From positions 1 to 52,403 of the IMG/VR virus record IMGVR_UViG_3300032782_000001: a DNA stretch of 52,403 nt, one strand, 5' to 3'. This DNA comes from a virus. Shown one piece after another: positions 1 through 44,085 of the stretch; within the stretch, counting starts at the first letter, position 1, and every line of letters begins with the position of its first letter. The position numbers were made by a program, and so were the translations under genes. The notes beneath the pieces are model-generated. The model ran no database searches. It was not told where the DNA came from and worked only from the letters and a program-made list of their open reading frames with translations.

Positions 1-117
1 CAACACCTTGAAACCTTCTCCGAGCTCCGTCCCTCCGTCTTCGGCCATCGCGCTCATCGCATCCGCAACGGCGTCCGCAACTTCGAAATTTTGCAAACGT
101 CCAGCAGATCGGCCCAT
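1..117 (-). CDS. hypothetical protein, N-terminal part only (gene runs off window)
   Basis: ATG near 117 preceded by GGAGGCGACGACC within the conserved upstream cassette; coordinates approximate. Confidence 0.35.
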   Translation of the reverse strand, partial: MGRSAGRLQNFEVADAVADAMSAMAEDGGTELGEGFKVL

Positions 118-165
118 GGTCGTCGCCTCCGTCCGCCAATACGACGGACGGAGGCGAATTTCCGA
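118..165 (-). promoter_or_regulatory. conserved upstream cassette, palindromic variant
   Basis: minus-strand reading GGAAATTCGCCTCCGTCCGTCGTATTGGCGGACGGAGGCGACGACC-ATG; 13-bp inverted repeat pairs the SD with an upstream CCTCC arm. Confidence 0.5.
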
Positions 166-402
166 TCACCCGTCGTCTTGCGCGTCCGCGGTCGCCTCTT
201 CTTCCGTGTCGAAGGGACCGTTCGGCGTCCCGTCAGGCACGCACCCGGGGAAGCAGGCCCACCAGTACCAGCCTGCAGCGAGCTTCTCGCCGTCTTCGGC
301 CTCCAGCTCACCTTCCGGGGCGTAGAAGACCTCGGCGTTCGGCAGAGCCGTCTCTTCGGTCTCACGGCTCTTGTCGGTGTAAATCTGCGGCATTGTCGTC
401 AC
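166..402 (-). CDS. small acidic hypothetical protein (78 aa)
   Basis: ORF track; GGAGGTGACGACA-ATG RBS directly upstream. Confidence 0.6.
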   Translation of the reverse strand: MTTMPQIYTDKSRETEETALPNAEVFYAPEGELEAEDGEKLAAGWYWWACFPGCVPDGTPNGPFDTEEEATADAQDDG

Positions 403-443
403 CTCCGATCTAGAGTACGACCGGAGGTGACGAACTTACGGCC
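403..443 (-). promoter_or_regulatory. conserved upstream cassette, palindromic variant
   Basis: GTCGTCACCTCCG..GAGTACGAC..CGGAGGTGACGAAC inverted repeat around a CGTAC/CGTAT core; CGTAAGTTCG box on the distal side. Confidence 0.55.
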
Positions 444-704
444 TTACGGCACCTGCCAAGTCCCGTCGCCTTCGTAGTAGAAGACAGACGCGCCGCTCGG
501 CAGCTCGACGAACGGGCAGTAACCGCCGCGGTCTGACCCTTCTGGGTGTTCGTCCACGTAGCCCTTGCACCCTTCCGGCAAGGGTACGTCCTGGTCTTCG
601 ACCCAGCCCTCCCCGCGGGCCACTTCCTTCGTCAAAGTCACCACGCCCTTGTGGACAGACGGGGTGCAGCCTTCGAGGTACTTGAGAAGCTCAGTCCTGT
701 TCAC
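444..704 (-). CDS. hypothetical protein (86 aa)
   Basis: ORF track; GTG start 5 nt after GGAGGTGA. Confidence 0.6.
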   Translation of the reverse strand: MNRTELLKYLEGCTPSVHKGVVTLTKEVARGEGWVEDQDVPLPEGCKGYVDEHPEGSDRGGYCPFVELPSGASVFYYEGDGTWQVP

Positions 705-750
705 GTCGTCACCTCCGCACCTGAGTACGCGCGGAGGTGACGAACTTGCC
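705..750 (-). promoter_or_regulatory. conserved upstream cassette, palindromic variant
   Basis: CGTCGTCACCTCCGCACCTGAGTACGCGCGGAGGTGACGAACTTGCCC. Confidence 0.5.
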
Positions 751-757
751 CTTTGTT

Positions 758-1012
758 TTACTTGGACTGGACAACCGTCACTTGGAACTCCGATCCGTCC
801 GTGAGACGGAGGACGAATCCGGCGTTGTTCGTGAGGACCATGGCCTCCTCGAAGGAGCGAAGGTCTGCACCGACCAGCACAGCCCCATCGTCCAAGCCGG
901 ACTCCACCTCGGTCGAAAGACCGATGGTCTCCTGAAGCAGAGTCGCCATTTCCATCTCGTCCATCGTAGCGATGACCTCACCGATCCGGGCCGTGTGTAC
1001 GCTCTTCGCCAT
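758..1012 (-). CDS. hypothetical protein (84 aa)
   Basis: ORF track 758..1072 trimmed to Met21, which follows GGAGGTGACGACG; the longer N-terminus is a read-through of the cassette. Confidence 0.6.
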   Translation of the reverse strand: MAKSVHTARIGEVIATMDEMEMATLLQETIGLSTEVESGLDDGAVLVGADLRSFEEAMVLTNNAGFVLRLTDGSEFQVTVVQSK

Positions 1013-1450
1013 CGTCGTCACCTCCGACTCTGGATACGACGATGGCCGGCGGATTTTCGCTCCGCCGGCCATCGAGACTGCACACCCGCGCTTGCCGGTT
1101 CTCCGGCTCTCAGCAAAGTTTGGAGGCGGCCACCAGCCGCCCGCTTTGACCCTTCCTCATCGGCCTCCTCACTTTCTGCGCCAGACCTCCGGTCTGGGAG
1201 AGCGTTGACCTCACCTATCCACGCCGTGCGAGTTGTCTCTTAACTGGGGGCCGGAGAACGGCAGCTTCGATCTCCCACCGCTAGCTGACGATCTTACCCC
1301 ACCCGGCGGCCGCAAGCCGCGCGATATAACGCAATCGGACTGCCTTTCCTTCGTAGGAGGTTGGTTTCTAGGACCTGTATGCCGCCGCGCGGTGGCCGGC
1401 CACCGCGCTCTCCCCGCTTGCGATCTCCGGTACGCCGCGCGTCGCCGAAC

Positions 1451-1585
1451 TTACGACCGGAGCAACGAGCCGATCGCCTCGCGCGTCTCCAGACAGATCG
1501 CCAGCTGCGCCTCGGTGATCTTGCCCTCGTCGTACCACGCGAGGATCTTCTTCACGCTGCTGAACCGCACGCTCTTCTTCGCCAT
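1451..1585 (-). CDS. small hypothetical protein (44 aa, MAKKSVRFSSVKKILAWYDEGKITEAQLAICLE...)
   Basis: hand-translated; GGAGGTGAGACCG-ATG RBS; below the ORF-track size cut-off; coordinates approximate. Confidence 0.4.
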   Translation of the reverse strand: MAKKSVRFSSVKKILAWYDEGKITEAQLAICLETREAIGSLLRS

Positions 1586-1640
1586 CGGTCTCACCTCCAC
1601 AACCGAATACGACGCGGATCGCCAGACTTACGACCGCGCC
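1586..1640 (-). promoter_or_regulatory. conserved upstream cassette
   Basis: minus reading GTCGTAAGTCTGGCGATCCGCGTCGTATTCGGTTGTGGAGGTGAGACCG-ATG. Confidence 0.5.
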
Positions 1641-1643
1641 CAC

Positions 1644-1684
1644 AATTCCCCTTTAAAATTGAACTGGGAATTTTAAAGGGGAAT
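1644..1684. promoter_or_regulatory. 16-bp inverted repeat (AATTCCCCTTTAAAATT / AATTTTAAAGGGGAAT) between divergent cassettes; operator-like
   Basis: near-perfect palindrome with 8-nt centre, lying exactly between the minus-strand cassette (1586-1640) and the plus-strand cassette (1690-1749). Confidence 0.45.
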
Positions 1685-1689
1685 CCCTC

Positions 1690-1749
1690 GCCCAGCGGGC
1701 GCCGCAAATCCGACAGGGCCCGTCGTATCCAGGGACGGAGGTGATGACG
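1690..1749 (+). promoter_or_regulatory. conserved upstream cassette
   Basis: GCCGCAAATCCGACAGGGCCCGTCGTATCCAGGGACGGAGGTGATGACG-ATG. Confidence 0.5.
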
Positions 1750-2115
1750 ATGACGACGAACAACGCAGCGAGCTACCCGTTCCTCAGCAAGGCCCAGATC
1801 AAGGATCGCCTGGCCCAAGACCCGGACTTCGTCCGGGAGTGCGCCCTGATCATGCAGGATCGCCAGACGGCCTACGAGCAGGCCACCCTCACCACGAAGG
1901 ACCGCAACCGCAAGGGCTGGATGAGCAGCCACGCCGTCAACGGCGGCAAGCTCACCGCCAAGCTCCGCCAGGGAGAGGCCCTCGAAGCCGAGGAGTGGCT
2001 CAAGCTCCAGGAGATGGTCTCGCACTACGGCAAGCAGCTCGCGAGCCACTTCCGGGAGGCGGCCATCGAAGCCAACCCGACCCTCAAGGCCGCGGCCGCG
2101 ATCTTCGGCGTCTGA
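1750..2115 (+). CDS. hypothetical protein (about 122 aa)
   Basis: ORF track 1741..2115; start ambiguous among three in-frame ATGs within or after GGAGGTGATGACGATG, and 1750 gives canonical spacing. Confidence 0.55.
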   Translation: MTTNNAASYPFLSKAQIKDRLAQDPDFVRECALIMQDRQTAYEQATLTTKDRNRKGWMSSHAVNGGKLTAKLRQGEALEAEEWLKLQEMVSHYGKQLASHFREAAIEANPTLKAAAAIFGV

Positions 2116-2123
2116 TCCAACCA

Positions 2124-2153
2124 GGCCCCGCCCGGGTTCTTCCGGGCGGGGCC
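2124..2153 (+). terminator. GC-rich perfect 12-bp hairpin (GGCCCCGCCCGG..CCGGGCGGGGCC)
   Basis: directly after the 2115 stop; no clear U-tract. Confidence 0.45.
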
Positions 2154-2164
2154 TGCCCGTCAAA

Positions 2165-2214
2165 GCGGCCGCAAATCTGATGCGGCCGCGCGTATTGACA
2201 TTCGGAGGGTAACG
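2165..2214 (+). promoter_or_regulatory. conserved upstream cassette
   Basis: CCGCAAATCTGATGCGGCCGCGCGTATTGACATTCGGAGGGTAACG-ATG. Confidence 0.5.
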
Positions 2215-2463
2215 ATGATCGACACGAGCTGCACGCTCACCGTGGGCGACTTGCTGGAAGCATTGAAGGCCGGTCGCGTGACCCCGGACACCTGCCTGGG
2301 ATACGCCGTTCGAGGGTTCCCGTCCGATGGCGTGGAGTCCATCTCTGCCATCAGCTTCCACAAATACGAGGACGGGACCCGGGTCCTCATCTTCTTGAAC
2401 GACGTTAACTCCCCACAAGTCGCTCGCGACGTCGTACCGCTGGAAGCCGAAGATTTGACCTGA
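2215..2463 (+). CDS. hypothetical protein (82 aa)
   Basis: ORF track; cassette upstream; hairpin AAGGCCGG..CCGGCCTT downstream at 2469-2501. Confidence 0.55.
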   Translation: MIDTSCTLTVGDLLEALKAGRVTPDTCLGYAVRGFPSDGVESISAISFHKYEDGTRVLIFLNDVNSPQVARDVVPLEAEDLT

Positions 2464-2509
2464 CCCCTAAGGCCGGGCTCGCGAAAGCGGGTTCCGGCCT
2501 TCGTCGTTC

Positions 2510-2731
2510 TTACTCTGATGGGATGTTAAATCCCTTGGGGTGACCTTCAGGAATATCTGCCAAGATATCTTTTGAAAGATCCCCTTTAAAAGCCAATCCA
2601 ATACACCCCTTTGAACAATAGTCCTTACGGATCGCCTTCAAAGACGAGTCCCCCTCTACTTTAAGGACTAGCCAGTTAGAAGGGATGGACTGCCCGACAA
2701 CCGATTTTCCGCAAGTATTACAAACCCACAT
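2510..2731 (-). CDS. Cys-rich small protein (CxxC...CxxxC), AT-rich island
   Basis: ORF track 2510..2785 trimmed to Met19; the track N-terminus translates the 2739-2777 hairpin. Confidence 0.4.
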   Translation of the reverse strand: MWVCNTCGKSVVGQSIPSNWLVLKVEGDSSLKAIRKDYCSKGCIGLAFKGDLSKDILADIPEGHPKGFNIPSE

Positions 2732-2738
2732 GAAGAAC

Positions 2739-2777
2739 AATACTTGGCAGGGGATCGTCGATCCCCTGCCAAGTATT
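2739..2777. repeat. perfect 19-bp inverted repeat AATACTTGGCAGGGGATCG/CGATCCCCTGCCAAGTATT (TGGCAGGGG hairpin family)
   Basis: read directly; same stem motif as 31395-31430 and 44086-44112. Confidence 0.7.
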
Positions 2778-2816
2778 TGTTTCAACCAGGGAATTTGCCC
2801 GTGTCGGGCCGAGCTT

Positions 2817-3272
2817 TCAAGATGGGACGACGAAATTTCCGCTTGAAAGAGCTGCCTGAAGGGACTTCATCATCACTTCCGGCGGGACGACACGCACGTC
2901 TCCCTCGACATCCGCGGCCATCCCAACCAGATCTTCCCAAGTGGCCGGAGGCGTCTCACCCTCCTCCAAATCCCACCCGACTTGGTCCCAAACCCCCTCC
3001 ATGTCGTCGTAAAGACCCATGGAGCCCCTGGTCCCACCCCCATGGATTTTCTCGTCAGCCGCTTCCACCGCGGCAGCCATCTCCGGAGTCCCTCCACCCG
3101 GAACTTTGAAAGCCTGCCATCCCCACGGCCCACTAACCGCCACATACGCGTCGCTCATAGCCGCCAGTACGCGGCGCAGCGCCGCACTTACGCGGACGCG
3201 ACTCGGTTTTTGACTGCGGTCAATTTTATCCGCAATTTGGCGCAAAGAAGCAGCAACCCGAGAAGGCGTCAT
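2817..3272 (-). CDS. hypothetical protein, paralog of 14874..15284 (shared N-terminal 40 aa PSRVAASLRxIADKIDRSxxPSRVRVS)
   Basis: ORF track trimmed to Met6 by comparison with the paralog; the shared 5' region contains an in-frame copy of the cassette at about 3150-3205. Confidence 0.6.
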   Translation of the reverse strand: MTPSRVAASLRQIADKIDRSQKPSRVRVSAALRRVLAAMSDAYVAVSGPWGWQAFKVPGGGTPEMAAAVEAADEKIHGGGTRGSMGLYDDMEGVWDQVGWDLEEGETPPATWEDLVGMAADVEGDVRVVPPEVMMKSLQAALSSGNFVVPS

Positions 3273-3414
3273 GCTTCTCTCCGTCAAAGGAGTTTTAGAA
3301 TCACGTCGCCACTTGCGTCAGCGGACCAAATTTTTGCCCCGCTTGCGTACGCGCGCGCAGGTATGGCAGGTATTTCTGCGATCCCTGCCAGGGATCGAGC
3401 CGATCCTTCTAGTT

Positions 3415-3585
3415 AGGTTCGCCTTTTTGGCGTTTCTTTACTGAAGAGCCAAGTCATTCCGAGCACGGTGGTCACCAACCCCACCAAGAAGTAAGGCGGC
3501 GGGTATTCGTAGAGAAGCGCACCCAGCAAAGTAAAGCTGAGTCCGGAGATCACCAGGGCGACGGGAAAAAGGCGAGGCTTCACGA
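3415..3585 (-). CDS. possible small 2-TM membrane protein (57 aa, GTG start)
   Basis: hand-translated; no SD; sits right after a terminator-like hairpin (3598-3646) followed by TTTTT; weak. Confidence 0.2.
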
Positions 3586-3659
3586 GTAAAAACCGGACCC
3601 TGGAGCCGCATGGTCGCCGGTTGGAGGTGACGACGGTCGGCTCCAGGGTCCCAAGGTGT

Positions 3660-3845
3660 TCAGTCGATGCGCCGCGCCTCCAAGCCCTTCTTCGTCGGAC
3701 GAAGGGTTCCGTCCACCTCGACGATGAAACCCTTCTTGACGAGGGCGAATCGCCGTCGACCGTCGATGGCGTGGGCCGGACACGGCTCCTTCACGTCGTC
3801 GCAATAGACAATTGAGAGCAGGGCCATCCAGGTTTCGAAAGTCAC
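3660..3845 (-). CDS. hypothetical protein (61 aa)
   Basis: ORF track; AAGGAGGAATCGCC-GTG start overlapping the upstream stop (GTGA). Confidence 0.5.
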   Translation of the reverse strand: MTFETWMALLSIVYCDDVKEPCPAHAIDGRRRFALVKKGFIVEVDGTLRPTKKGLEARRID

Positions 3846-4201
3846 GGCGATTCCTCCTTCTTAGAACGCTCTGCGTCAAGGACCTTCTTGGCCCGGACGA
3901 ACAACTCCCGCCAGTAGACGTGGCTGAAGTAAACGGAGATAGACGAGTTCTTCCCCGGATTGAGGCCCCGGAGGCACTCGAGCAAGTCAGCATCCGAAAG
4001 CCCGTTCGCCGTGGCGAACGCTGCCTCGTACTGCGCTTGAGGAACGAGATTGAAGAGCTGCTCCACGAGCGGAACCTTCTCAGGTAGGTCCGGCGGACCG
4101 TCGCTCGGAGCCGGCGCGTTGTCCTTCACCAGCTTGGCAATGGCCTGAAGCTGGGCCTTTGCCTCCTCGAGCTTGTGCTCAACTTTCTCGTCGGATCCCA
4201 T
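3842..4201 (-). CDS. hypothetical protein (119 aa)
   Basis: ORF track; GGAGGTTTTGATTAA-ATG. Confidence 0.6.
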   Translation of the reverse strand: MGSDEKVEHKLEEAKAQLQAIAKLVKDNAPAPSDGPPDLPEKVPLVEQLFNLVPQAQYEAAFATANGLSDADLLECLRGLNPGKNSSISVYFSHVYWRELFVRAKKVLDAERSKKEESP

Positions 4202-4245
4202 TTAATCAAAACCTCCGACCGATCTTACGTTGAAAAGCAGAAGGT

Positions 4246-4473
4246 TTACGACGTTTCGTAGACCTTCAAACTCTCCCACGCCGGGATAGCAAACTGCTCG
4301 TCGTAGTCCCGCTCCGTGTCGTTCATGTCCTGCCGCCAGTCGATCTCGTGCTGATAGCAGGACTTGCAAACGATGGCATTGGAATCGCCACCCGTCGGCA
4401 GAAGCCGGACTTCACCTTCGACGCAGATCCCGAGCTGCTTGTCACAGCGAGGATTGTTGTAATGAGTCGCCAA
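4246..4473 (-). CDS. Cys-rich small protein (75 aa, TTG start)
   Basis: ORF track 4246..4650 trimmed to Leu60 (TTG), which follows GGAGGTGACGAAC; the residues upstream (PEVTNL) are the cassette read-through. Confidence 0.5.
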   Translation of the reverse strand: MATHYNNPRCDKQLGICVEGEVRLLPTGGDSNAIVCKSCYQHEIDWRQDMNDTERDYDEQFAIPAWESLKVYETS

Positions 4474-4520
4474 GTTCGTCACCTCCGGATCCAAATACGA
4501 CCGGAGGTGACGAACTTGCG
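4474..4520 (-). promoter_or_regulatory. conserved upstream cassette, palindromic variant (17-bp arms AAGTTCGTCACCTCCGG / CCGGAGGTGACGAACTT)
   Basis: read directly; central TCGTATTTGGAT. Confidence 0.55.
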
Positions 4521-4528
4521 CCGTCGCG

Positions 4529-4999
4529 TCAGTCCAGACGATCGTCCTGACCACAACGAGGGTCGCACTGGCCCGGAGGCGCCCCGCACTCCTCGCAATC
4601 GTCCGAGTGGTCTTCCGGGTCGGAATTGTCATCGCAGATGGGAGTCCCACCCAAGGCTTCGAGAACCGCCGTCACCGTCTTGCAAACGGACGTCTCGGCC
4701 GTCCGAGGAGAACAGAGGGTCTCGCAAATTTTCCAAGACCGGACGTATTGCCAACCGTCGACGTAAGGAAGGGACAATCCCTCCCAACGGTCGTGACGCC
4801 AAGGGATCTCCCCGTGGTTCTCCTTGTCGATGTGCTTCGCCAACAGGTCGCAGACGACCCGGGCAAGCTCCTCCGAAGCACACAGGACCAAATGGTCCGT
4901 GTCCGGAGCCTCCCCGTCGTAATCGCCGTAGATCGCCCAGCAAGGCACGGCCAGAATCGGCTTGGCCAACTCGTAGATCTTCTCGAGGTCCTCAGTCAC
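4529..4999 (-). CDS. hypothetical protein, Cys/Asp-rich C-terminus (156 aa)
   Basis: ORF track; GTG start after GGAGGTGACGAC; cassette at 5000-5050. Confidence 0.6.
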   Translation of the reverse strand: MTEDLEKIYELAKPILAVPCWAIYGDYDGEAPDTDHLVLCASEELARVVCDLLAKHIDKENHGEIPWRHDRWEGLSLPYVDGWQYVRSWKICETLCSPRTAETSVCKTVTAVLEALGGTPICDDNSDPEDHSDDCEECGAPPGQCDPRCGQDDRLD

Positions 5000-5062
5000 G
5001 TCGTCACCTCCGCGATCGGATACGACGCGGCCCGGCGGATTTCTGCGATCGCGCCGAGTTCT

Positions 5063-5359
5063 TCAAAAACTCCCGGCGGTTGAGCTGCGGTCGAACGACA
5101 GGATCATGTCGTTCCCGAAGAGTTTCTCGGCCACCTTCCGGTTCTCCGTCGGAGTTCCTTCTTCCAAGGGATGGACTTTGGAAGCCGGCACCCGGACGTT
5201 CTCGTACATGGAGTGCCACTTCACGACGTACGTGACCCTTCCAATCCCCGGCTTCCGATTCGGGTCGAGCTCGTTGGAGACCACCTCGCCTTCCACGAGC
5301 CGTCCCTTGAGGACGAAACCGACCTTCGAACCCTTCGGAAGAACCTTGTAACCACTCAT
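5063..5359 (-). CDS. hypothetical protein (98 aa)
   Basis: ORF track; AGGAGGTGATGGCCGG-ATG; cassette at 5360-5410. Confidence 0.6.
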   Translation of the reverse strand: MSGYKVLPKGSKVGFVLKGRLVEGEVVSNELDPNRKPGIGRVTYVVKWHSMYENVRVPASKVHPLEEGTPTENRKVAEKLFGNDMILSFDRSSTAGSF

Positions 5360-5437
5360 CCGGCCATCACCTCCTGCCCCCGATACGCCGCGGAACCGCC
5401 AGATTTGCGCCCCGGCTTCAAAGGGGACCTTTAAAGA

Positions 5438-5638
5438 CTAACTCTTCATGACTTCAAGGATGATTTTCTCTTCGCAAGGGACCCACTCCGGAACGGGTCC
5501 AGTACCTTGGACTGGCACGTGGAGATTCCAAGGAGGCTTCCTGGAAGACCAGTGGACTCCTCCGCATTTGGAACACCTCCATTTTAGAGCTCCTTCGGGT
5601 TCTTCCTGGACCCAGACGTGCCCCGAATGTCTTCCCAT
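5438..5638 (-). CDS. small Cys-rich protein, tail ...ILEVMKS (V-[MH]-x-S tail family)
   Basis: ORF track. Confidence 0.5.
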   Translation of the reverse strand: MGRHSGHVWVQEEPEGALKWRCSKCGGVHWSSRKPPWNLHVPVQGTGPVPEWVPCEEKIILEVMKS

Positions 5639-6432: not shown

Positions 6433-6693
6433 TCAGCTCGACATGATGTTCCATACGACGAATTCGTTGAAGGAGATTTCACGGATGTCGGGTGGAAGAA
6501 TGGTTCCGTCGTCCATTCTTTTGTAGGTTTTGGAGACTCGTTGCCATTCTTCGGCGCAGGTTGGGCAGCAGCTGAAGGTGTTTTTGGTGGTCAGGCCTTG
6601 GAAGTAGACGGAGGTTGGGTTGGGGCAGGGTCCTTTGAAGGACAGGCAGGATTCTGGGTCCCAGGCGAAGTCTTTGGGGTTTCGGACGGTCAT
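6433..6693 (-). CDS. Cys-rich small protein, tail ...NEFVVWNIMSS (tail family)
   Basis: ORF track; ATGA overlap with upstream gene. Confidence 0.55.
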   Translation of the reverse strand: MTVRNPKDFAWDPESCLSFKGPCPNPTSVYFQGLTTKNTFSCCPTCAEEWQRVSKTYKRMDDGTILPPDIREISFNEFVVWNIMSS

Positions 6694-6947
6694 GCGTCCA
6701 TCACTTGGGCGACGAGGAATTCTGCTTCTGAGAGTTCTTCCACTTTAACCCATTGGCCAAGGAATTTCAGATATCGCGGTTTATCGGCGTGGGGGCTGAG
6801 GAATTGGAGTTTTCCGTGGGTGGGGCATCGGGCGAAGGTTCGGATGGTTCGTCCGAACAATGTACCTCGGAAGAATTTTGTGGCGGGTTCGCCGCATTCT
6901 TTTTCCGGGTCTAGCGGGTTTTCTGCGTAGTCGCAGGAGTTCTTCAC
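6690..6947 (-). CDS. Cys-rich small protein, tail ...EAEFLVAQVMDA (tail family)
   Basis: ORF track; GTGA overlap with upstream gene. Confidence 0.55.
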   Translation of the reverse strand: MKNSCDYAENPLDPEKECGEPATKFFRGTLFGRTIRTFARCPTHGKLQFLSPHADKPRYLKFLGQWVKVEELSEAEFLVAQVMDA

Positions 6948-7159
6948 GAGTCCATCACCTGTCGGCAGATGAATTCTTCTCGGGAGATTTCAATCGGCTC
7001 CATCGGAGCCCCGCGGATTTCCATCGGAAGCAGTCCGTTTAGGCAACATTGGTTACAAGTTCCCCATACGAACATTTTTCCTTCTTGGCGTTCGTACTGG
7101 AAGAATCGAGAGGCTTCGTTCTGGCAGTCGTCTATGCAGGGGATGGGTTCCGTTTTCAC
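6944..7159 (-). CDS. Cys-rich small protein, tail ...REEFICRQVMDS (tail family)
   Basis: ORF track. Confidence 0.55.
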   Translation of the reverse strand: MKTEPIPCIDDCQNEASRFFQYERQEGKMFVWGTCNQCCLNGLLPMEIRGAPMEPIEISREEFICRQVMDS

Positions 7160-7932
7160 GAGTCCATCACTTGGGCGACCAGGTACTCTTCCAGGGAGAT
7201 TTCCTGGATGTCATGTCCTGAATCTCGGGCGTGGTATCCGCATCGGGCCACGTTCAGGCGGGCGATCCTTCCTGAGAATTCGAATTCATCTCGGAAGAAT
7301 CGGACGGCCGGGTTTTGGCATTGTCCGGGGTCCAGTTTTTCCCAGTCGCATGGAATTCGGGGGTTTTCCGCGTCCCAGAGTTTTTGAAGCCTCTCCATTT
7401 CTTTCTGGAGGAGTGCTTGTCCGTCGAGTCCGTAGATCTGGTTGTCGAATTCGATGATTTTTTTCCGGTGTTCGGAGGGTCGGCTTGGGAGGCCCAGCGG
7501 GTTGACCATGAGCCAGTGCAGTTCTTTCGGAATCCGGTTTCCGGGGGAGGTGTCCAGGATGACCGGTTGTGGTCCTTCTCCGTCTTTCGGGTCTCCGTAT
7601 TCTTGACCGTCGTAGACGACCACGGGGAATGCGCCTTGGAGGTTGGGGAAGTGTGGGGAGTATTGGAAGATGTCAATTCGTCCGCATTGGAGCGCCATCC
7701 ATCGGCAGATGGTCCAGATGTATTCCCTTTCCAGGGAGCTACAGTTGTAGTCGAAGCCGATCCTGCACGGTCCGTCGTCGTAGGATAGGCTTTCGTTCGT
7801 CGGCAGTCCGTCTTCCAGTGGACCTCGGTAGTAGACTGGTTGGTCTGCCGGTTTTCCCAGGAGTTCGGGGAATTTCCGCAGGTTCTTTTCCAGGAAGGCG
7901 AGCATTCGCTTTTTGGCGATTTCGCTAGCCAT
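7156..7932 (-). CDS. hypothetical protein (258 aa), tail ...LEEYLVAQVMDS (tail family)
   Basis: ORF track 7156..7956 trimmed to Met9. Confidence 0.55.
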   Translation of the reverse strand: MASEIAKKRMLAFLEKNLRKFPELLGKPADQPVYYRGPLEDGLPTNESLSYDDGPCRIGFDYNCSSLEREYIWTICRWMALQCGRIDIFQYSPHFPNLQGAFPVVVYDGQEYGDPKDGEGPQPVILDTSPGNRIPKELHWLMVNPLGLPSRPSEHRKKIIEFDNQIYGLDGQALLQKEMERLQKLWDAENPRIPCDWEKLDPGQCQNPAVRFFRDEFEFSGRIARLNVARCGYHARDSGHDIQEISLEEYLVAQVMDS

Positions 7933-7959
7933 TGGCGCAGTAATGCTGTAGCCCACCGT

Positions 7960-8163
7960 TTAGCTCTCCATGACTTGTCGGACGACGAATTCTTCCAGGG
8001 TAACAAGTTTAGATTCCCATCCCTGGATGGAGTGAACTCGACATCTTGAAATGAATAGACGGGATGCTTTGAAGTAGTAGAAGTAAATGGATCTTTTACC
8101 GCACCTCGGTTCCTCGACAAGCCGGTCGGCTCCAGCATCGCACGGAATGAATTCGTCTCTCAT
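7960..8163 (-). CDS. Cys-rich small protein, tail ...LEEFVVRQVMES (tail family)
   Basis: ORF track 7960..8457 trimmed to Met99, which forms an ATGA overlap with the upstream stop; the track N-terminus is junk-like. Confidence 0.5.
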   Translation of the reverse strand: MRDEFIPCDAGADRLVEEPRCGKRSIYFYYFKASRLFISRCRVHSIQGWESKLVTLEEFVVRQVMES

Positions 8164-8348
8164 GATTCCATGACTTGTCGGATGACGAATTCTTCTCGTG
8201 AAATTTCTTTCGTATATTTTTCTCGCCGGCAGGTCGGGCAGTGTGAAGCGCAGCGTCCTTTCAATTTCCGGAATTTGGAGATTTGGAAGAATCGGATAGC
8301 TGGCAGTCCGCAGACGTATCCCGGTTGTGTGTAGTCGCAGGTGATCAC
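8160..8348 (-). CDS. Cys-rich small protein, tail ...REEFVIRQVMES (tail family)
   Basis: ORF track 8160..8753 trimmed to the GTG that overlaps the stop of 8345..8650 (GTGA). Confidence 0.5.
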   Translation of the reverse strand: MITCDYTQPGYVCGLPAIRFFQISKFRKLKGRCASHCPTCRREKYTKEISREEFVIRQVMES

Positions 8349-8650
8349 GGGTTTTCCGGCAGGAATTGCACGTCCACCAGGATGTCCGGGTCCACCCGAG
8401 CGTAGTACCCGTATTCGGCTTTGTCCAACCGATCGTCTCGAATCCCGATATCGCCAAAGCGGCTCACCGACGCGATCAGCACTTTGGAGCCGGCTTTCGC
8501 CATCCGCGTCGTCGTGTGTTCTTCCACCGGATGGGATCCATCCCAGATATGCATTTGGCAGTCCACCAGGAGGGTCGCGGTGGCGAAGTAGCCTTTGACT
8601 TCGAAAGTCGCCTTTCGCCGATACATCTCTTCCAAGATCTTCGCGTCCAT
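8345..8650 (-). CDS. hypothetical protein (101 aa), non-family gene inside the tandem array
   Basis: ORF track; cassette at 8651-8698 (GAAATCCG..GACGTATTGCG..GGAGGCGACG-ATG). Confidence 0.55.
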   Translation of the reverse strand: MDAKILEEMYRRKATFEVKGYFATATLLVDCQMHIWDGSHPVEEHTTTRMAKAGSKVLIASVSRFGDIGIRDDRLDKAEYGYYARVDPDILVDVQFLPENP

Positions 8651-8698
8651 CGTCGCCTCCAGATCGCAATACGTCTCGACCTTTCGGATTTCCGTCGA

Positions 8699-8947
8699 TC
8701 AGGAATCCATGACTTCGTGGATTACAAATTCTTCCAGGGTCACCTCGGTCCATCCGCTAACGCCATGTTCATCACATCTGGCGTTGCAGCCCGATCGGAA
8801 GACGTAAAACCTCGTCGCGTCTCGTCCGCACGTCTTATTCACGAGCCACGGATAAGACGTGCGGACGAGACGCGACGAGGTTTTACGTCTTCCGCACGTC
8901 TTATCCGTGGCTCGTGAATAGTGGTCACAAGGGATGAGCCTTGTCAC
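8699..8947 (-). CDS. Cys-rich protein, tail ...LEEFVIHEVMDS (tail family), carrying an in-frame palindromic insertion
   Basis: ORF track 8699..9409 trimmed to the GTG that overlaps the stop of 8944..9291; CDS contains the nested inverted repeat 8801-8917. Confidence 0.45.
   Translation of the reverse strand: MTRLIPCDHYSRATDKTCGRRKTSSRLVRTSYPWLVNKTCGRDATRFYVFRSGCNARCDEHGVSGWTEVTLEEFVIHEVMDS
8801..8917. repeat. nested inverted repeat: 38-bp perfect arms (8801-8838 / 8852-8889) around a 13-nt spacer, then a second copy of the arm end plus the inverted spacer (8892-8917)
   Basis: read directly: GACGTAAAACCTCGTCGCGTCTCGTCCGCACGTCTTAT-TCACGAGCCACGG-ATAAGACGTGCGGACGAGACGCGACGAGGTTTTACGTC-TT-CCGCACGTCTTAT-CCGTGGCTCGTGA. 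Confidence 0.75.
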
Positions 8948-9291
8948 TCCTGGTTGTACGGGTCCACTCGACATTCCAGCCTCGTCCACACGTCTTGGAA
9001 CCAGGTTTCCATCTTCTCGACCGAATCTCCCTCCCTCAACGATCGGGAGATGTCGAAAAAGTCGTCTTGGTTCCTTCGATAGAACCGGGCTTCGGCAGAG
9101 AAGGCGGTGTCTCCGCCGTAAGGCCGATGATCCCACCAATACACGTGAATGCAGTACAACTTCTTGACGTAGGTCGTGTCTTGGTCGAGGAAACTTCCTC
9201 GGATCCATTTGGACCACAAGCCGTCCGCCTTGTGAGGCTTGGATTCCCGGTACCCGGCTTTTTCGAGATCTGCTTCGGTGATCATCGTCAA
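8944..9291 (-). CDS. hypothetical protein (115 aa)
   Basis: ORF track; overlaps upstream gene stop. Confidence 0.6.
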   Translation of the reverse strand: MTMITEADLEKAGYRESKPHKADGLWSKWIRGSFLDQDTTYVKKLYCIHVYWWDHRPYGGDTAFSAEARFYRRNQDDFFDISRSLREGDSVEKMETWFQDVWTRLECRVDPYNQE

Positions 9292-9950: not shown

Positions 9951-10000
9951 CTCACCAACCAATACGGCTCGACCCGTCGAATTTACGCCGACATCACTTC
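9951..10000 (-). promoter_or_regulatory. conserved upstream cassette
   Basis: minus reading GGCGTAAATTCGACGGGTCGAGCCGTATTGGTTGGTGAG-ATG; its TAA doubles as the stop codon of 9983..10237. Confidence 0.5.
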
Positions 10001-10237
10001 CCAGACGAGGAATTCTTCTTCAGTTATCCGGATCCATTTGTCTCCCAGGAACCCTGGTTTAAATCTGAGTGAATACTGATGTAGATTGCAAACAGCTGCG
10101 GCCCGATTCCCCGTAGGGCTCAATAGGAAGAAGTGTCTTGCAGGCCCGTTCGGCATCGACCCTTCTTCGCGTCTCTGCGCTTCGCACATCTCGCATTTTC
10201 GGACGCCACTTGTAAAATCTTCCATGTCGTCTGACAA
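9983..10237 (-). CDS. Cys-rich small protein, tail ...EEEFLVWEVMSA (tail family)
   Basis: ORF track. Confidence 0.55.
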   Translation of the reverse strand: MSDDMEDFTSGVRKCEMCEAQRREEGSMPNGPARHFFLLSPTGNRAAAVCNLHQYSLRFKPGFLGDKWIRITEEEFLVWEVMSA

Positions 10238-11295: not shown

Positions 11296-11514
11296 TTAAG
11301 ACATCATTACTTCATGGACGATGAACTCTGCTCGAGTGAGTTCCTGGACGAATCCCTTCTTGATTTCTTCCAAGAAAGTCGGATCCTCCGCGACGCATCG
11401 TTTGCAGCGGATAATGGGTCGCTTGCTGATGGTTCCTACAAAGAACCGGACGTCCTTGCTCATGCACATCGTGGTTTCCCACCCGAAGGGTACTTGGTTC
11501 TGGCAATAATCCAT
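11296..11514 (-). CDS. Cys-rich small protein, tail ...RAEFIVHEVMMS (tail family)
   Basis: ORF track 11296..11568 trimmed to Met19; cassette at 11515-11570. Confidence 0.55.
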   Translation of the reverse strand: MDYCQNQVPFGWETTMCMSKDVRFFVGTISKRPIIRCKRCVAEDPTFLEEIKKGFVQELTRAEFIVHEVMMS

Positions 11515-11590: not shown

Positions 11591-11667
11591 GGTGGACCGG
11601 AAGGGATTCGAACCCTCAGTTAGGAAGTTTTTAAAACCTCTGTGTCTGCCTTTTCCACCACCGGTCC
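11591..11667 (-). tRNA. tRNA-like gene, anticodon UAA (Leu-type anticodon but short variable arm)
   Basis: 7/7-bp acceptor GGACCGG/CCGGTCC, T-arm GAGGG-TTCGAAT-CCCTT, anticodon arm GAGGT-TTTAAAA-ACTTC, 3-bp D-stem, 77 nt ending ACC; coordinates approximate. Confidence 0.55.
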
Positions 11668-12520: not shown

Positions 12521-12709
12521 TCAGGCCGACATCACTTCGTACACGAGCCACGAGTTTCTCTCTTCGGGGGACATGGACTGAATAACTTCATCCAAGTTTG
12601 CCTGAAGCCTTTGCCGAAAGACTTCACGTTTCTCTTCGGACCTGGTGTCGTTCGTCAGCACATCTTGCAGTTGAGCGCTGATCCAGAACGCATCTTGAAC
12701 TTTGCTCAT
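12521..12709 (-). CDS. small protein, tail ...SWLVYEVMSA (tail family)
   Basis: ORF track; ATGA overlap. Confidence 0.5.
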   Translation of the reverse strand: MSKVQDAFWISAQLQDVLTNDTRSEEKREVFRQRLQANLDEVIQSMSPEERNSWLVYEVMSA

Positions 12710-13029
12710 GATGCATGGACCGCCAAGATGGTCATCTGACGCTTCACACGTTCTTTGATTTCCTCGAGGGGTCCGAAGAAGATGCGAAACCCGACGCCAT
12801 CCTTCGTGTACCAGATCTCACGACCATTGGCCTCTTGGGCGATGTTCATCCCGATCTGGATGTACTCGTGGGGCTCCAAATCCTGCCCCACATAATCGAA
12901 ATCCGTGAGTCCACCCTCGGTGAAATCCCCATTATCCAACGGGAAGATCTCGGCGTCGTTCTCTCGAGCGACAATGAACTCGGCGACAAGCGCCTGGAGT
13001 TCCTCATCCTCCTTGAATTTCAGCTCCAT
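12706..13029 (-). CDS. hypothetical protein (107 aa)
   Basis: ORF track 12706..13182 trimmed to Met52 after GGAGGATGGCTC. Confidence 0.55.
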   Translation of the reverse strand: MELKFKEDEELQALVAEFIVARENDAEIFPLDNGDFTEGGLTDFDYVGQDLEPHEYIQIGMNIAQEANGREIWYTKDGVGFRIFFGPLEEIKERVKRQMTILAVHAS

Positions 13030-13229
13030 GAGCCATCCTCCAGCTTCTTCAGCTCCACGAGCGCCTTGGCATATGCCTCTTCGATCATCGACCGACGAGC
13101 CAATGCGAGGTGAGCTTTTTCGTGGTCGACGACTGCCTTCCGCTCGGACGCCGTGAGCTTCCGGATCATGCCGGGGTCCCAACAGACAGAACAGGTTCCA
13201 GCCTTGTAAACCATCTTAGGTTCGGCCAT
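13020..13229 (-). CDS. hypothetical protein (69 aa, CxxC)
   Basis: ORF track trimmed to Met4 after GGAGGTGACGATA; cassette at 13230-13280. Confidence 0.55.
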   Translation of the reverse strand: MAEPKMVYKAGTCSVCWDPGMIRKLTASERKAVVDHEKAHLALARRSMIEEAYAKALVELKKLEDGSWS

Positions 13230-13277: not shown

Positions 13278-13841
13278 TCACGCCTCCATCACGTCGAACA
13301 CATAACATAACTGAAGGGCTTTTTCCTTGGAAATTTCCTCGAATTTCTTGACCTCTTTGGCAAGTATGCAGACTTCACAAAGTCCAAATGGAGGTTCTCC
13401 CTGGAAGAACTTCTTAGCCGGCTTCCGCTCGGCGGTTTTCCCGAGGTCTCTACCTTTGGAATCGTATTTTGAATGCATGTTCCTGCAAAACATCAGCATC
13501 CCGGAAGGAGGAAGTGGAGTTGATGATAAGAAGGCTTCTTGTTCGGGTAGTCCTGTGAGGTCGGATTTATTTATCGCTCCCGCTCCAAGCGCTCTTACCT
13601 GGTCGAGGACGTGCATGACCGATTGGTACTTGGTGAGACGCAGATCCTGAATGATTTCTGTACTGAGACCACTTTTGAGTAGCCTTTGAACCGAGCCCAC
13701 AGGCACGTGTTCCATCATGGAGCACACTTGCACATAACGCTCCGTGGCGTACCGCTTGTAGCCCTTTTCGTAAAGCCCTTTCGCCTCCAGCATGGCTTGA
13801 CGAATTTTGTCCATCAAAGCATTCAACGATATGTCGTCCAT
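13278..13841 (-). CDS. hypothetical protein (187 aa), tail ...LCYVFDVMEA (tail family)
   Basis: ORF track; stop lies inside the downstream gene's cassette. Confidence 0.6.
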   Translation of the reverse strand: MDDISLNALMDKIRQAMLEAKGLYEKGYKRYATERYVQVCSMMEHVPVGSVQRLLKSGLSTEIIQDLRLTKYQSVMHVLDQVRALGAGAINKSDLTGLPEQEAFLSSTPLPPSGMLMFCRNMHSKYDSKGRDLGKTAERKPAKKFFQGEPPFGLCEVCILAKEVKKFEEISKEKALQLCYVFDVMEA

Positions 13842-13849
13842 GATTCGAC

Positions 13850-14170
13850 CTAGCTATACATGACCGTCCAGACAGTCCACTCTTCGTCCGAAAGCTTGCG
13901 GATTTTCCCATGGAAGATGGTGTCTTCTCCCATAAAGCCCTTGTTCATGCACGACTTGCAGACGAGGAACATGGTGGCCCGGATCTTATCCAGCTTATCC
14001 AGACTCCCTACATTGGAATGCTGTTGAAGGTATTCTTCGGCGAAGACGAAAGCTGCAATGGGCTTCCCTGACTGAGTCCCCATGTGATTGGAACATGATG
14101 GGTCGCAGCAACGACCAGCTGTACCCCTCTTGGCCCTGGCCAGAAGCACCATCAGCTCTCGGTCGTTCAT
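13850..14170 (-). CDS. Cys-rich protein (106 aa), tail ...EEWTVWTVMYS (tail family)
   Basis: ORF track trimmed to Met10 after GGGAG. Confidence 0.5.
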   Translation of the reverse strand: MNDRELMVLLARAKRGTAGRCCDPSCSNHMGTQSGKPIAAFVFAEEYLQQHSNVGSLDKLDKIRATMFLVCKSCMNKGFMGEDTIFHGKIRKLSDEEWTVWTVMYS

Positions 14171-14172
14171 AT

Positions 14173-14325
14173 CTACTCCCAGTTCTCGACTTTCCAAGCG
14201 GACTGGCGCTCCTTGGCGCGTCGATCCGCTCGATGACGCATCTTCGCAGCCTTGCAGTTAAGAATGGCCGTAAGGCATTCGATGGAACGGGGCTTTTTAG
14301 GCTGCCGAGCCTTGCGAATCTTCAT
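14173..14325 (-). CDS. small very basic protein (50 aa, MKIRKARQPKKPRSIECL...)
   Basis: hand-translated; GGAGGTGACGACG-ATG; cassette at 14326-14380; not in ORF track (under 60 aa). Confidence 0.4.
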   Translation of the reverse strand: MKIRKARQPKKPRSIECLTAILNCKAAKMRHRADRRAKERQSAWKVENWE

Positions 14326-19224: not shown

Positions 19225-19428
19225 TCAGGACTCCATAGTATCTACGACGATTTCCAAGTTCCTGGCGATCTGTAGCGCTTCGCTGTCAGTGTCGCACCTG
19301 ACAACTACTTCACCTCCCCATGGTGAATCACTCATACTCTGGACCTTCATAGGAATGAACTGCGGCTTCCCAGATCCAGGTATCCTTACGACTGCGTAGA
19401 ATCCTACTTCTTGATCGGAATTTTTCAA
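19225..19428 (-). CDS. small protein, tail ...EIVVDTMES (tail family)
   Basis: ORF track; TTGA stop-start overlap. Confidence 0.45.
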   Translation of the reverse strand: MKNSDQEVGFYAVVRIPGSGKPQFIPMKVQSMSDSPWGGEVVVRCDTDSEALQIARNLEIVVDTMES

Positions 19429-19628
19429 GATTCCATGACCAAGAAGACCAAGAATTCTTCCTTGGTCATCTTTAGAGAGACGCTCTGACGATAAAGAGGA
19501 ATTCCCATCCCCTCATGTTCAGAACACCGGCTTTGAAAAGGGAACCCGGCAACGCCGCGGTAGAAGTGGGTCCCATCACGTCCGCATATGACGCATTGGC
19601 ACATTTCTTCATCAGTTAGTGTGCTCAT
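19425..19628 (-). CDS. Cys-rich small protein, tail ...KEEFLVFLVMES (tail family)
   Basis: ORF track; ATGA overlap. Confidence 0.55.
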   Translation of the reverse strand: MSTLTDEEMCQCVICGRDGTHFYRGVAGFPFQSRCSEHEGMGIPLYRQSVSLKMTKEEFLVFLVMES

Positions 19629-20038
19629 GACTCCATGACTCCGCGCACCAGCTTTAGAGCTTTCCTCTTCTGCTTGATGGCTTTATCGTGCTTTTCGAAC
19701 CAATCGGTTCCCTTAATGATGAACCCGATTTCAGAATGCACTGCAGTCCAGAATTTCTCCCAGTCTACATGCCCATCCAACATTTTGTAGATATGGGCTG
19801 TGGCGCGATCTTCCAAGATATCTTCGAGAAACTTGTCTTTAGCCCAGGTTCCTTCCCCTACGAGGGTCAAGAACTCTTGGCCAATCGTGTGGGGGTTCTG
19901 ATTCAGGAACGCGCACGGATCGAGCGAAGGCAGTGTCTTGAGCACGAAATCTTTGGCCCAGAGAGCGAACCACCAGTCGATGAGACTGATGAAGACAGCT
20001 TCCGATCCGGAGATGATTCCCGAATGGATAGACCTCAT
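19625..20038 (-). CDS. hypothetical protein (137 aa), tail ...KLVRGVMES (tail family)
   Basis: ORF track trimmed to Met6 after GGAGGCAATA; cassette boxes at 20039-20085. Confidence 0.55.
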   Translation of the reverse strand: MRSIHSGIISGSEAVFISLIDWWFALWAKDFVLKTLPSLDPCAFLNQNPHTIGQEFLTLVGEGTWAKDKFLEDILEDRATAHIYKMLDGHVDWEKFWTAVHSEIGFIIKGTDWFEKHDKAIKQKRKALKLVRGVMES

Positions 20039-20102
20039 TATTGCCTCCATCATCCAATACGCGCGACCGGACCAAACTTGCCCGGCGACGCCATATTGTC
20101 GC

Positions 20103-20291
20103 CTACGACTCCATGACCTCGTAGATGAGGCACATGGCGATGAACTCTTCTTGAGAAATGCGTAGATCCATCAAGTCAGGATCGTTATCGATTCGGTTCC
20201 CGAAACAGTCAGCACACCATGCAAACGGCTTCCCGTCGAAGACGAATTCTTCCGCTTCGCGGAGACATTGCCTACAAGGAATAGTGTTCAC
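20103..20291 (-). CDS. Cys-rich small protein, tail ...CLIYEVMES (tail family)
   Basis: ORF track; GTG start 9 nt after the upstream TGA. Confidence 0.5.
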   Translation of the reverse strand: MNTIPCRQCLREAEEFVFDGKPFAWCADCFGNRIDNDPDLMDLRISQEEFIAMCLIYEVMES

Positions 20292-20846: not shown

Positions 20847-20888
20847 CGTCGTCACCTCCGCGATTGAATACGACGCCGACTGCTGAAT

Positions 20889-23731: not shown

Positions 23732-24174
23732 TGGAGGGGGACTTCAGTCAGCTCTGACATCTGGAGACGCATCCGTTCTACGTGATCTGAAAATGCGAGG
23801 TAATCACCTCGAGAAGCTGCCCAGCAAGCAGCTTCTCCCCAAAAAGCGCATGCCTCAAGAGCGAGGCGCCAATGGCGAGATGCTCGAGGTGCTTCATGGA
23901 CACGAATCCTTTGAAGAATTCTACATGCTGCTGCGAGGGTCCGTCGACATTCTACGGGGCCAAGTGATCGAAGATGGCCACTCATTTCAGGGAGACCAGC
24001 CGCATCAGTCATACACGGCATGAGTTGACGGACAACCGAATCAGCTTCAGGCAAGAGCTCCATGCTTTGGGAAGCACGCGGGTACAAAGACTTCATTCCA
24101 ACAAGTTACAACAGAGCCGCGAGCTCCGCAAATTCGACAGATCGGCACGTATGCAATTGTCAGGAGGTGCCGAC

Positions 24175-25794: not shown

Positions 25795-25891
25795 TCGACT
25801 GTAAAGTGCTCGGCCCCAACTTCAAAAGCAGTGCGGCGCGCAGCCGCAAATTCGCCGCTGCTCCGCGTATCGGGCAGTGGAGGTGACGCGA

Positions 25892-31387: not shown

Positions 31388-31394
31388 TTTGCTG

Positions 31395-31430: not shown

Positions 31431-31444
31431 CTGGGGAGGTAACC

Positions 31445-31741: not shown

Positions 31742-31743
31742 AC

Positions 31744-44084: not shown

Positions 44085-44085
44085 C

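Follow-up and report, generated by a model that had tools for sequence, protein, structure and literature searches.

Short terminal peptides that many unrelated proteins present to one receptor are familiar from eukaryotes, where PEX5 reads the peroxisomal targeting signal PTS1 (-SKL) and the KDEL receptor reads -KDEL, each serving a known organelle. Comparable logic is generally known from the ClpX-binding peptide of SspB, the ankyrin/PRANC (F-box-like) families of poxviruses, the substrates of the Dot/Icm type IV system, the T4 capsid targeting sequence and encapsulin peptides, and the T4 proteins gp43, gp33 and gp55, whose tails bind the sliding clamp gp45. Here we describe a conserved C-terminal heptapeptide, V(-7)-x-x-V(-4)-[M/H/Q](-3)-[E/D](-2)-[S/A](-1)-COOH, in a bacterial virus, the IMG/VR record IMGVR_UViG_3300032782_000001, of which the whole stretch of 52,403 nucleotides was analysed (hereafter the window). 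The peptide ends about 53 of about 90 genes, among them a tandem array of seven Cys-rich paralogs at 6433-8947. We think the case slightly favours the view that this end (EEF..V..VMES) works at the protein level, as a docking or address tag that a single common partner recognises.

Like PTS1 and KDEL, the phage tag consists of a few residues at the exact C-terminus of many unrelated proteins, with a consensus that varies by lineage; it differs in its motif and in belonging to a phage proteome, with a putative receptor and destination. With SspB and the poxvirus ankyrin/PRANC proteins it shares the layout of a variable N-terminal module followed by a conserved C-terminal docking element, and with the latter also the large, fast-evolving paralog families of a big viral genome, but sequence similarity and signs of a protease or ligase partner are lacking and the phage element is only ~7-14 residues long. 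The Dot/Icm effector signal (Glu-rich, E-block) likewise marks hundreds of unrelated proteins with an acidic C-terminus and a hydrophobic residue near -3; it is degenerate and read by a bacterial coupling complex, whereas the phage tag is sharply defined and has no secretion system in its context. The T4 and encapsulin peptides are also short labels, loading unrelated proteins into an HK97-fold shell, but the T4 sequence is N-terminal and cleaved off, whereas the phage tag is C-terminal and stands in a non-structural gene context. The gp45-binding tails are hydrophobic and acidic C-terminal ends of unrelated proteins docking on one hub; they belong to a handful of proteins and have a different motif, whereas the phage tag occurs on dozens to hundreds. 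Two direct assignments were rejected. V-M-E|S resembles the [LI]-x-E consensus of the T4-type prohead protease only in some lineages, position -2 being free in one related phage locus (L084), and encapsulin cargo peptides centre on GSL at the C-terminus and come with a shell gene nearby, the tail here being VxxVM[ED]S.

The tag exists as a strictly terminal, peptide-selected and clade-specific feature of proteins with unrelated folds. Tails were scanned in six-frame, stop-to-stop frames and genes were taken from a codon-usage gene caller; the tailed genes lie between 5.4 and 52.4 kb, on both strands, and the tail tracks gene orientation. Among 779 stop-to-stop frames of at least 40 amino acids (aa), the terminal tetrapeptides VMES, VMDS and VHES occurred 19, 7 and 6 times, respectively, and any other at most 3 times, the last two residues being [E/D] and then [S/A] in most tails. 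The pattern [VI][MH][ED][SA] was found 30 times at the terminus and 4 times internally (13,331 residues). With -3 and -2 left free, the tag pattern gave 11.3 matches per 10 kb in the window vs 0-0.7 in five control phage loci. Past the right window end, in the same phage (L147, 10900-20400), 24 more tail open reading frames (ORFs) were found in 9.5 kb, denser and mostly Cys-rich, and the sample of ~62 kb of the ~436-kb genome holds at least 77 tagged ORFs.

The tailed proteins of the window comprise 25 Cys-rich paralogs (47-266 aa) and 28 others (60-316 aa). The positions common to both classes are only -7 V/I, -4 V/I, -3 M>H>Q, -2 E/D and -1 S/A, the extension [IL][ST]-x-EE[FY] being restricted to the Cys-rich class. 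The folds carrying the tag are unrelated and include a zinc-ribbon-like class, an SH3-like barrel class and many proteins without a database match; in Pfam scans of 20 tagged proteins, no match was significant and the sole listed one fell far under the cut-off.

The first-pass annotation had suggested that the conserved 3' ends act as recombination junctions, and more broadly the tail could be an element of DNA or RNA (a recombination junction, a translational coupling device, a ribosome-binding signal or a repeat). The codons do not bear this out. Those at -7, -4 and -2 (Val, Glu and Asp) followed the synonymous usage of the genome, Val being encoded by GTC/GTG/GTT/GTA 24/16/5/3 times and Glu equally by GAA and GAG (14 each), with wobble positions free and Asp codons present; the last Ser used all six codons, seven AGY among them. 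Across all tail pairs, identical residues had identical codons in 1,851 cases vs 1,667 expected, which is near random. The single deviation was an over-use of TCA for the last Ser (15/44 vs 9% genome-wide), explained by TCATGA creating an overlap with the next start; this overlap speaks for a DNA-level element, as do the GGAG included in ATG-GAG and the nucleotide runs common to array tails, the longest of which are 12-16 nt (read by eye from the sequence). Against it, no more than 15 of the 53 tails run into the start of the next gene, the string ATGGA is gone from the H and Q variants (VHES, VQES), and the tag is kept in phages with proteins only ~50% identical. Because synonymous codons vary as in the genome, all six Ser codons occur and the position is terminal, selection must act on the peptide and not the DNA. 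The tail is conserved as peptide, a role as DNA recombination junction or ribosome-binding signal is unsupported, and we regard any DNA- or RNA-level element as highly improbable. Among the seven array members, identical codons numbered 67 of 115 vs 48 expected, a modest excess that fits recent tandem duplication; microhomology-mediated exchange might still occur.

Integron cassettes resemble the array in that small and diverse genes follow one another on one strand and each closes with a recurring 3' element, but attC is a non-coding DNA recombination site, whereas the phage tail is coding and conserved as peptide only. An integron-type attC site was rejected as the recurring 3' element lies within the ORF and its synonymous sites vary like the genome background. 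The search of the interval 8650-9000 for strong inverted repeats returned a single foldback at 8796-8920, and Pfam scans of 30 window proteins gave no integrase, no search aimed at integrases having been made.

Besides this phage, at least 6 metagenomic phage contigs carry the tag. The pattern free at -3/-2 gave 6-17 matches per 10 kb in tag-bearing phages (0-0.7 in the five controls). Of 80 IMG/VR loci linked to the ligase of the window, only the closest was tail-rich (a 393-kb contig with 52% ligase identity and 24 tail ORFs in 21 kb), the remaining 79 showing no tag enrichment, and a scan of IMG/VR with the exact pattern found tail-rich loci on contigs of 427, 377, 393 and 193 kb and on two short contigs. 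The closest GenBank ligase (43% identity) is that of the 485-kb uncultured phage LR745208, in which the 41 kb examined showed no tail enrichment, and the GenBank phage collection contained zero members of the tag-bearing clade. The residues at -3 and -2 differ between lineages as follows.

Window: -3 is M in 45, H in 7 and Q in 3; -2 is mostly E/D.
L145 (362 kb, G+C content 0.60): -3 is H in 8, Q in 4 and M in 1; -2 is mixed.
L084: -3 is M; -2 is any residue; VWEVM-x-S is kept.

The tag is clade-specific and drifts in concert within lineages. A concerted shift across many unrelated proteins of one genome is as expected from co-evolution with a single reader.

A conserved tagged protein of 144 aa (46894-47328) has at least 148 homologs with 45-68% identity on contigs of up to 445 kb. 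In an alignment of 50 homologs, all 25 displayed rows end at one column with RDRVKxVKxV[MHQL][ED..]x. The sole homolog in a GenBank phage, XaC1_167 of Xanthomonas phage XaC1 (L143, 20001-20327; 33% identity), stops at ...RFWVKLHDFNTIICDVI, before the terminal helix and tag, and no tag enrichment was seen within the 40 kb examined of XaC1. XaC1_167, the one homolog from a cultured phage, is a possible experimental entry for a comparison of tagged and untagged forms. In the model of the 144-aa protein, an SH3-like barrel, the tail helix has a predicted local distance difference test score (pLDDT) below 50; high conservation combined with low structural confidence is typical of motifs that fold on binding.

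The Cys-rich paralogs number ~25 in the window, and another phage (L084) holds ~25 in tandem within 18 kb. Aligned, 21 copies from the window gave the consensus C-x(n)-C-x3-A-x-x-F...RC-x-x-H...IS-x-EEF-x-V-x-EVM-x-S, with one Cys invariant and two further Cys, one Glu, the Met and the last Ser at least 90% conserved. The family was visible to an exhaustive HMMER search, a word-indexed search with the paralog profile returning the phage's own proteins only: 422 matches at E<=1e-3 were found among 1.84 billion representatives of 50%-identity clusters, and of 55 matches inspected nearly all were 55-90 aa long and tag-ended, one of them lying on the contig with the L084 tandem copies. Rapid tandem expansion and divergence of the family is supported. 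No significant match to the paralogs was found in Pfam, PHROG, PDB or BFVD. Zinc ribbons and treble clefs have four conserved ligands for the metal, arranged as two knuckles on beta-hairpins; in 61 sequences, C8, C21, C41 and H44 are at least 90% conserved, and the AlphaFold2 model of paralog 7960-8163 built from them is compact (mean pLDDT 86.9), with three strands followed by the tail helix, itself of high confidence (last blocks 94 and 86). From sequence and model, the paralogs of 50-90 aa appear zinc-ribbon-like.

The core of the tag would form the last turns of an acidic amphipathic helix, and a clade of huge phages (~190-445 kb) has placed it on a large share of its phage-specific accessory proteins, apparently more than half of those with no assigned function, both the expanded Cys-rich family, array included, and many unrelated proteins. 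The common reader would be phage-encoded or possibly host-encoded. The tag could address the protein that bears it, directing its recruitment, packaging, targeting to a compartment or turnover, or it could be a tether, a variable N-terminal target-binding module bringing its target to a shared machine. With a tether, it would make sense that small proteins which duplicate and diverge fast dominate the tagged set and that housekeeping enzymes are untagged. The local array arose by tandem duplication and divergence of tagged genes. In its most far-reaching form, which we advance tentatively and lean somewhat against, the account holds that VxxV[M/H]ES-COOH is a proteome-scale address code that connects fast-evolving accessory proteins, in their dozens to hundreds, to a single machine or compartment built by the phage, and that tag and reader evolve together.

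Several points weigh against a common reader. Both the single reader and what tagging achieves are inferred, and the tagged share was read from the ~62-kb sample of the genome. The main internal tension is structural: in the model of the Cys-rich paralog, the terminal helix lies in one compact unit with the three strands, and in this class it may be buried in the fold and not free to dock. Further, all tagged proteins could descend from one ancestor and have kept only its last helix. Spelled out, there would then be no reader, but one expanded superfamily in which the last helix is a buried structural element and the N-terminal parts diverged or were replaced. The tandem arrays, the clearly expanded paralog family, the confidently predicted helix within its compact three-strand unit and the synonymous codon sharing of adjacent array members (see above) would all be accommodated. 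The bodies of the second class are, however, unrelated, one of them being the SH3-like barrel with its poorly predicted tail helix, and the classes share the last 7 positions only; a buried helix need not stop at a fixed residue before the stop codon, nor does it call for a small last residue that is always the same. In XaC1, a homolog with this body lacks the helix, and genome-wide shifts of preference at -3/-2 are hard to obtain from independent fold constraints. We consider common descent without a reader unlikely.

None of the open-access full texts searched described phage proteomes with a common C-terminal tag, nor a proteome-scale tag in a bacterial virus. The logic of the tag resembles that of known terminal sorting and docking signals, and its function is a proposed one. 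If one peptide labels a large share of the proteins without assigned function in huge phages, it would give a handle on unannotated giant-phage genes, as the set can be listed from sequence alone, and the fate or destination of the whole set could be tested with a single peptide. The reader might be found by its co-variation with the tag, the switch from M to H between lineages being a natural experiment. Were the account true, bacterial viruses would be able to run their own protein-addressing system, comparable to the sorting signals of eukaryotes or to F-box-type adaptor families. The tag could be a portable engineering handle and, for annotation, is a cheap signature of real small genes and correct stop codons within the tag-bearing clade.

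The source is a huge phage of ~436 kb. The 266-aa array protein is encoded without change on a 337-kb ENA contig, and a 436-kb JGI contig holds other proteins of the window. The window proteins with database matches are an ATP-dependent DNA ligase, a MoxR-type AAA+ ATPase, a DUF2201 putative metallopeptidase/VWA protein, a calcineurin-like phosphoesterase and a ParB/HTH protein, all without the tag; PHROG counterparts of the matched proteins confirm the phage context. The window is matched at 100% identity by the assemblies L002 and L003, which come from this phage too and are therefore uninformative on copy-number variation. Window positions 1-5400 have a G+C content of 0.58-0.63 vs ~0.52-0.55 elsewhere and contain zero tagged genes; as the 337-kb contig from this phage matches them at 100% identity, they represent a different genome module and not a host flank.

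A composite promoter-like motif, GC-GTAAATTC-N12-14-CGTA[TC]T-N6-8-GGAGGTGA-N4-6-ATG, occurs 10 times, at 5649, 9979(-), 13268(-), 20885(-), 21200(-), 23087, 34324, 35251, 43070 and 44973, always intergenic and on the gene strand. The element GTAAATTC alone gave 10 matches vs 1.03 expected from shuffling. The motif lies upstream of tagged genes and of the ligase and phosphoesterase genes alike and is probably a phage-specific promoter with a short leader. The MoxR-type ATPase (25877-27001) and the DUF2201/VWA protein (29900-31387) form an untagged nearby pair amid tagged genes; the pairing is kept in a relative (L144, 240-1367 and 3657-5147), which bears a 59%-identical ortholog.

This gene content bears on two further explanations. 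As a C-terminal degron, the tag would let an AAA+ protease, of the host or the phage, remove accessory proteins of the early phase at a set time, which suits a strictly C-terminal, short tag on many unrelated small proteins, and the MoxR-type ATPase and DUF2201 putative metallopeptidase/VWA protein stand amid tagged genes. The promoter class common to tagged, ligase and phosphoesterase genes would further suggest early or middle expression. ClpXP degrons of the ssrA type need non-polar ends (LAA), the LDD variant being the standard stable control. The phage tail ends in an acidic residue followed by Ser or Ala, unlike these, and has no LAA/VAA-type end; such acidic and polar last residues make an ssrA-like host degron unlikely. 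Established PHROG families include the MoxR/DUF2201 pair, which is therefore unlikely to be specific to tag-bearing phages; this counts against a degron. A conserved, core-like protein whose 50 aligned homologs all bear a degron would be unexpected, though possible. In E. coli, ssrA-like tags are described as exceptionally potent C-terminal degrons (PMC10862746). On balance, a degron seems to us distinctly unlikely.

Tagged proteins might instead be loaded into the phage's very large head and enter the cell together with the DNA, as an arsenal ready for use. The idea draws on analogy with the T4 capsid targeting sequence, encapsulin cargo-loading peptides and the boluses of ejection proteins described in giant phages (PMC7411985, PMC10052503), and many small proteins with no annotated function do carry the tag. 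The tagged genes are, however, interleaved with replication and repair genes under the same promoter motif, which suggests that they are not a late structural module, and the tagged count in the sample is very high for virion cargo. The nearby shell gene typical of encapsulins had no capsid-like counterpart among the 30 window proteins scanned. We give a capsid-loading or ejection signal little credence. A common reader of the tag, with the reservations given above, remains our preferred account.

Returning to the array, the seven minus-strand ORFs at 6433-8947 were all found where the first-pass annotation had placed them. Their products are small and Cys-rich with ends of the form EIS-x-EEF-x-V-x-QVM[ED]S, and in alignment all seven fit C...C...A-x-RFF...(R)C-x-x-H/C...[IL][ST]-x-EE[FY]-x-V-x-x-VM-x-[SA]. 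With the last 14 residues removed, each of the seven matched a hidden Markov model (HMM) of tail-stripped non-array members (E=1e-9 to 7e-3), reversed-sequence controls giving E>=38. Coordinates, Cys pattern, tail and HMM matches together establish the paralogs as real. The genes of the array and the one within it are as follows, all on the minus strand.

8699-8947, minus: array member 1, Cys-rich paralog, end TLEEFVIHEVMDS; contains the 66-nt foldback; shortest plausible form 8699-8842 (47 aa).
8345-8650, minus: unrelated gene, 101 aa, no tail, no Cys pattern; own GGAGG ribosome-binding site.
8160-8348, minus: array member 2, end ISREEFVIRQVMES; GTG start overlaps the stop of 8345-8650.
7960-8163, minus: array member 3, end TLEEFVVRQVMES; Ser codon AGC, stop TAA; modelled with AlphaFold2.
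7156-7956, minus: array member 4, 266 aa (258 from ATG 7932); N-terminal extension, then Cys-rich module, tail ISLEEYLVAQVMDS.
6944-7159, minus: array member 5, end ISREEFICRQVMDS.
6690-6947, minus: array member 6, end LSEAEFLVAQVMDA.
6433-6693, minus: array member 7, end ISFNEFVVWNIMSS.

The described chaining by ATGA/GTGA overlaps applies to most of the array. Overlaps of 4 nt were found at four intra-array junctions (8163 ATGA, 7159 GTGA, 6947 GTGA and 6693 ATGA) and a fifth, GTGA at 8348, joins the stop of the unrelated gene to the start of 8160-8348; the other two array junctions are short gaps, 7960-8163 ending in TAA before its gap. As annotated, the gene at 8345-8650 is foreign to the array, having neither Cys pattern nor tail nor Pfam match, and a 48-nt spacer with a GGAGG ribosome-binding site parts 8650 from 8699. 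The start of member 4 is ambiguous, either GTG 7956 or ATG 7932.

The view of the array as a cassette-style diversification locus held in part. The family expands fast and array content varies among relatives, but there is no bounded cassette, as the tail is found throughout the window, on both strands and also on ~28 proteins outside the paralog family; the array samples this wider feature locally. The annotation had named absence of similarity past the tail and of copy-number variation in relatives as arguing against diversification; similarity past the tail and variation in content were both found, and diversification stands.

The foldback lies in-frame within ORF 8699-8947, where a perfect inverted repeat of 43 nt (8796-8838 / 8852-8894) overlaps a second of 33 nt (8836-8868 / 8888-8920). 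On reading the sequence, deletion of one copy of the 66-nt direct repeat yields a canonical 60-aa member. Two other assemblies of this phage (the 337-kb ENA contig and a Logan contig) terminate inside the foldback, at window positions 8872 and 8825, respectively. The foldback is thus either an artefact of assembly or genuine, as a hairpin or the structure of a genome end.

An alternate-frame ORF of 294 aa, 7254-8138 (-), overlaps array members and is an in-frame continuation past the TGA of 8160-8348. It is probably spurious, since the codon-usage gene caller preferred the overlapping array genes, and could mislead gene callers. Read-through of TGA or an alternative genetic code is unsupported: stops after tails are TGA 41, TAA 7 and TAG 5, and the continuation after 8160 joins this rejected ORF.

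The other tailed genes of the window are listed below.

5438-5638, minus: Cys-rich tail protein, end EEKIILEVMKS.
9983-10237, minus: Cys-rich paralog, end ITEEEFLVWEVMSA.
11296-11514, minus: Cys-rich paralog, end LTRAEFIVHEVMMS.
12521-12709, minus: tail-only protein, end WLVYEVMSA.
12706-13182, minus: tail-variant protein, end MTILAVHAS.
13278-13841, minus: tail-only protein, end CYVFDVMEA.
13850-14197, minus: Cys-rich tail protein, end LSDEEWTVWTVMYS.
19225-19428, minus: tail-variant protein, end LEIVVDTMES; also in the second small tagged family.
19425-19628, minus: Cys-rich paralog, end MTKEEFLVFLVMES.
19625-20053, minus: tail-only protein, end LKLVRGVMES.
20103-20291, minus: Cys-rich paralog, end CLIYEVMES.
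20301-20855, minus: tail-variant protein, end DPVREVHES.
23974-24801, plus: tail-only protein, 275 aa, end FCVADVMEA.
24803-25360, plus: tail-only protein, end AQVAEVMDS.
25415-25597, plus: Cys-rich paralog, end LTDEELLVYEVMTS.
25594-25794, plus: Cys-rich paralog, end IPISEGIVLSVMES.
27155-27379, plus: Cys-containing tail protein, end SCEEIVVLAVMDS.
29579-29833, plus: Cys-rich paralog, end ITRDQYVVHEIMDS.
31388-31741, plus: frame with end CPVKYVMES; start uncertain, overlaps the next ORF.
31669-32070, plus: tail-only protein, end AVIQSVMES.
34013-34318, plus: tail-only protein, end SVVEQVMVA.
34348-34809, plus: tail-only protein, end KTVASVMES.
34811-35245, plus: tail-only protein, end NTILEVMES.
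35295-36020, plus: tail-only protein, 241 aa, end AHVAMVMDS.
36017-36310, plus: tail-variant protein, end LIIVEEVQES.
36312-36599, plus: tail-only protein, end LEVERVMTA.
37410-37661, minus: Cys-rich paralog, 83 aa (as database protein P0019), end MSLEEAVVQEVMES.
37666-37935, minus: Cys-rich paralog, 89 aa (as database protein P0005), end MDPEEALVREVMES.
38445-38945, minus: tail protein, end LNRVRQVMES, Ser codon AGC.
40056-40745, minus: tail-only protein, 229 aa, end ALTEVVMSS.
40893-41723, plus: tail-only protein, 276 aa, end AKVQSVMES, Ser codon AGT.
42094-42480, plus: tail-variant protein, end CIVESVHES.
42628-42852, plus: Cys-rich paralog, end ISGPEFLVWEVMES.
42854-43063, plus: Cys-rich paralog, 69 aa (as database protein P0020), end FTVVYEIMKS.
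43134-44084, plus: tail-only protein, 316 aa, end LYLVGDVMQS.
44045-44581, plus: tail-only protein, end TKVVRHVMDS.
46282-46512, plus: tail-only protein, end HKVREVMES.
46894-47328, plus: conserved 144-aa protein, predicted SH3-like barrel, tail RDRVKVVKEVMES, retained as the very C-terminal end in at least 148 homologs.
47325-47603, plus: Cys-rich paralog, end ISEQELIVLEVMES.
47827-48009, plus: tail-variant protein, end ALVQDVHES.
48006-48242, plus: tail-variant protein, end QQVADVQDA.
48327-48557, plus: member of the second small family (...A..LN.V..[VI]M.S), end LNDVRKIMDS.
50734-51120, plus: Cys-containing tail protein, end RQVSQVMES, start uncertain.
51497-51925, plus: tail-variant protein, end MNEILEVHES; also in the second small tagged family.
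51925-52134, plus: Cys-rich paralog, end LSMEEWLILEVHES.
52104-52400, plus: Cys-rich paralog, end ISYEEYIVYEVMAS, start uncertain.

Between tagged genes lies an untagged 356-aa protein with a DUF6011 motif (PF19474), at 38989-40059 (-), which is conserved in the relative L144 (17874-18854). A single tRNA-Leu gene (anticodon TAA) at 11591-11667 (-) is directly upstream of the tagged gene 11296-11514 and is partly overlapped by a longer stop-to-stop frame. The second small tagged paralog family (48327-48557, 51497-51925 and 19225-19428) consists of a strand and then a longer helix, ...EA...A..LN-x-V-x-x-VM-x-S, and recurs in other tag-bearing phages (L094, 6982-8721; L099, 1730-2053; L145, 9369-9747).

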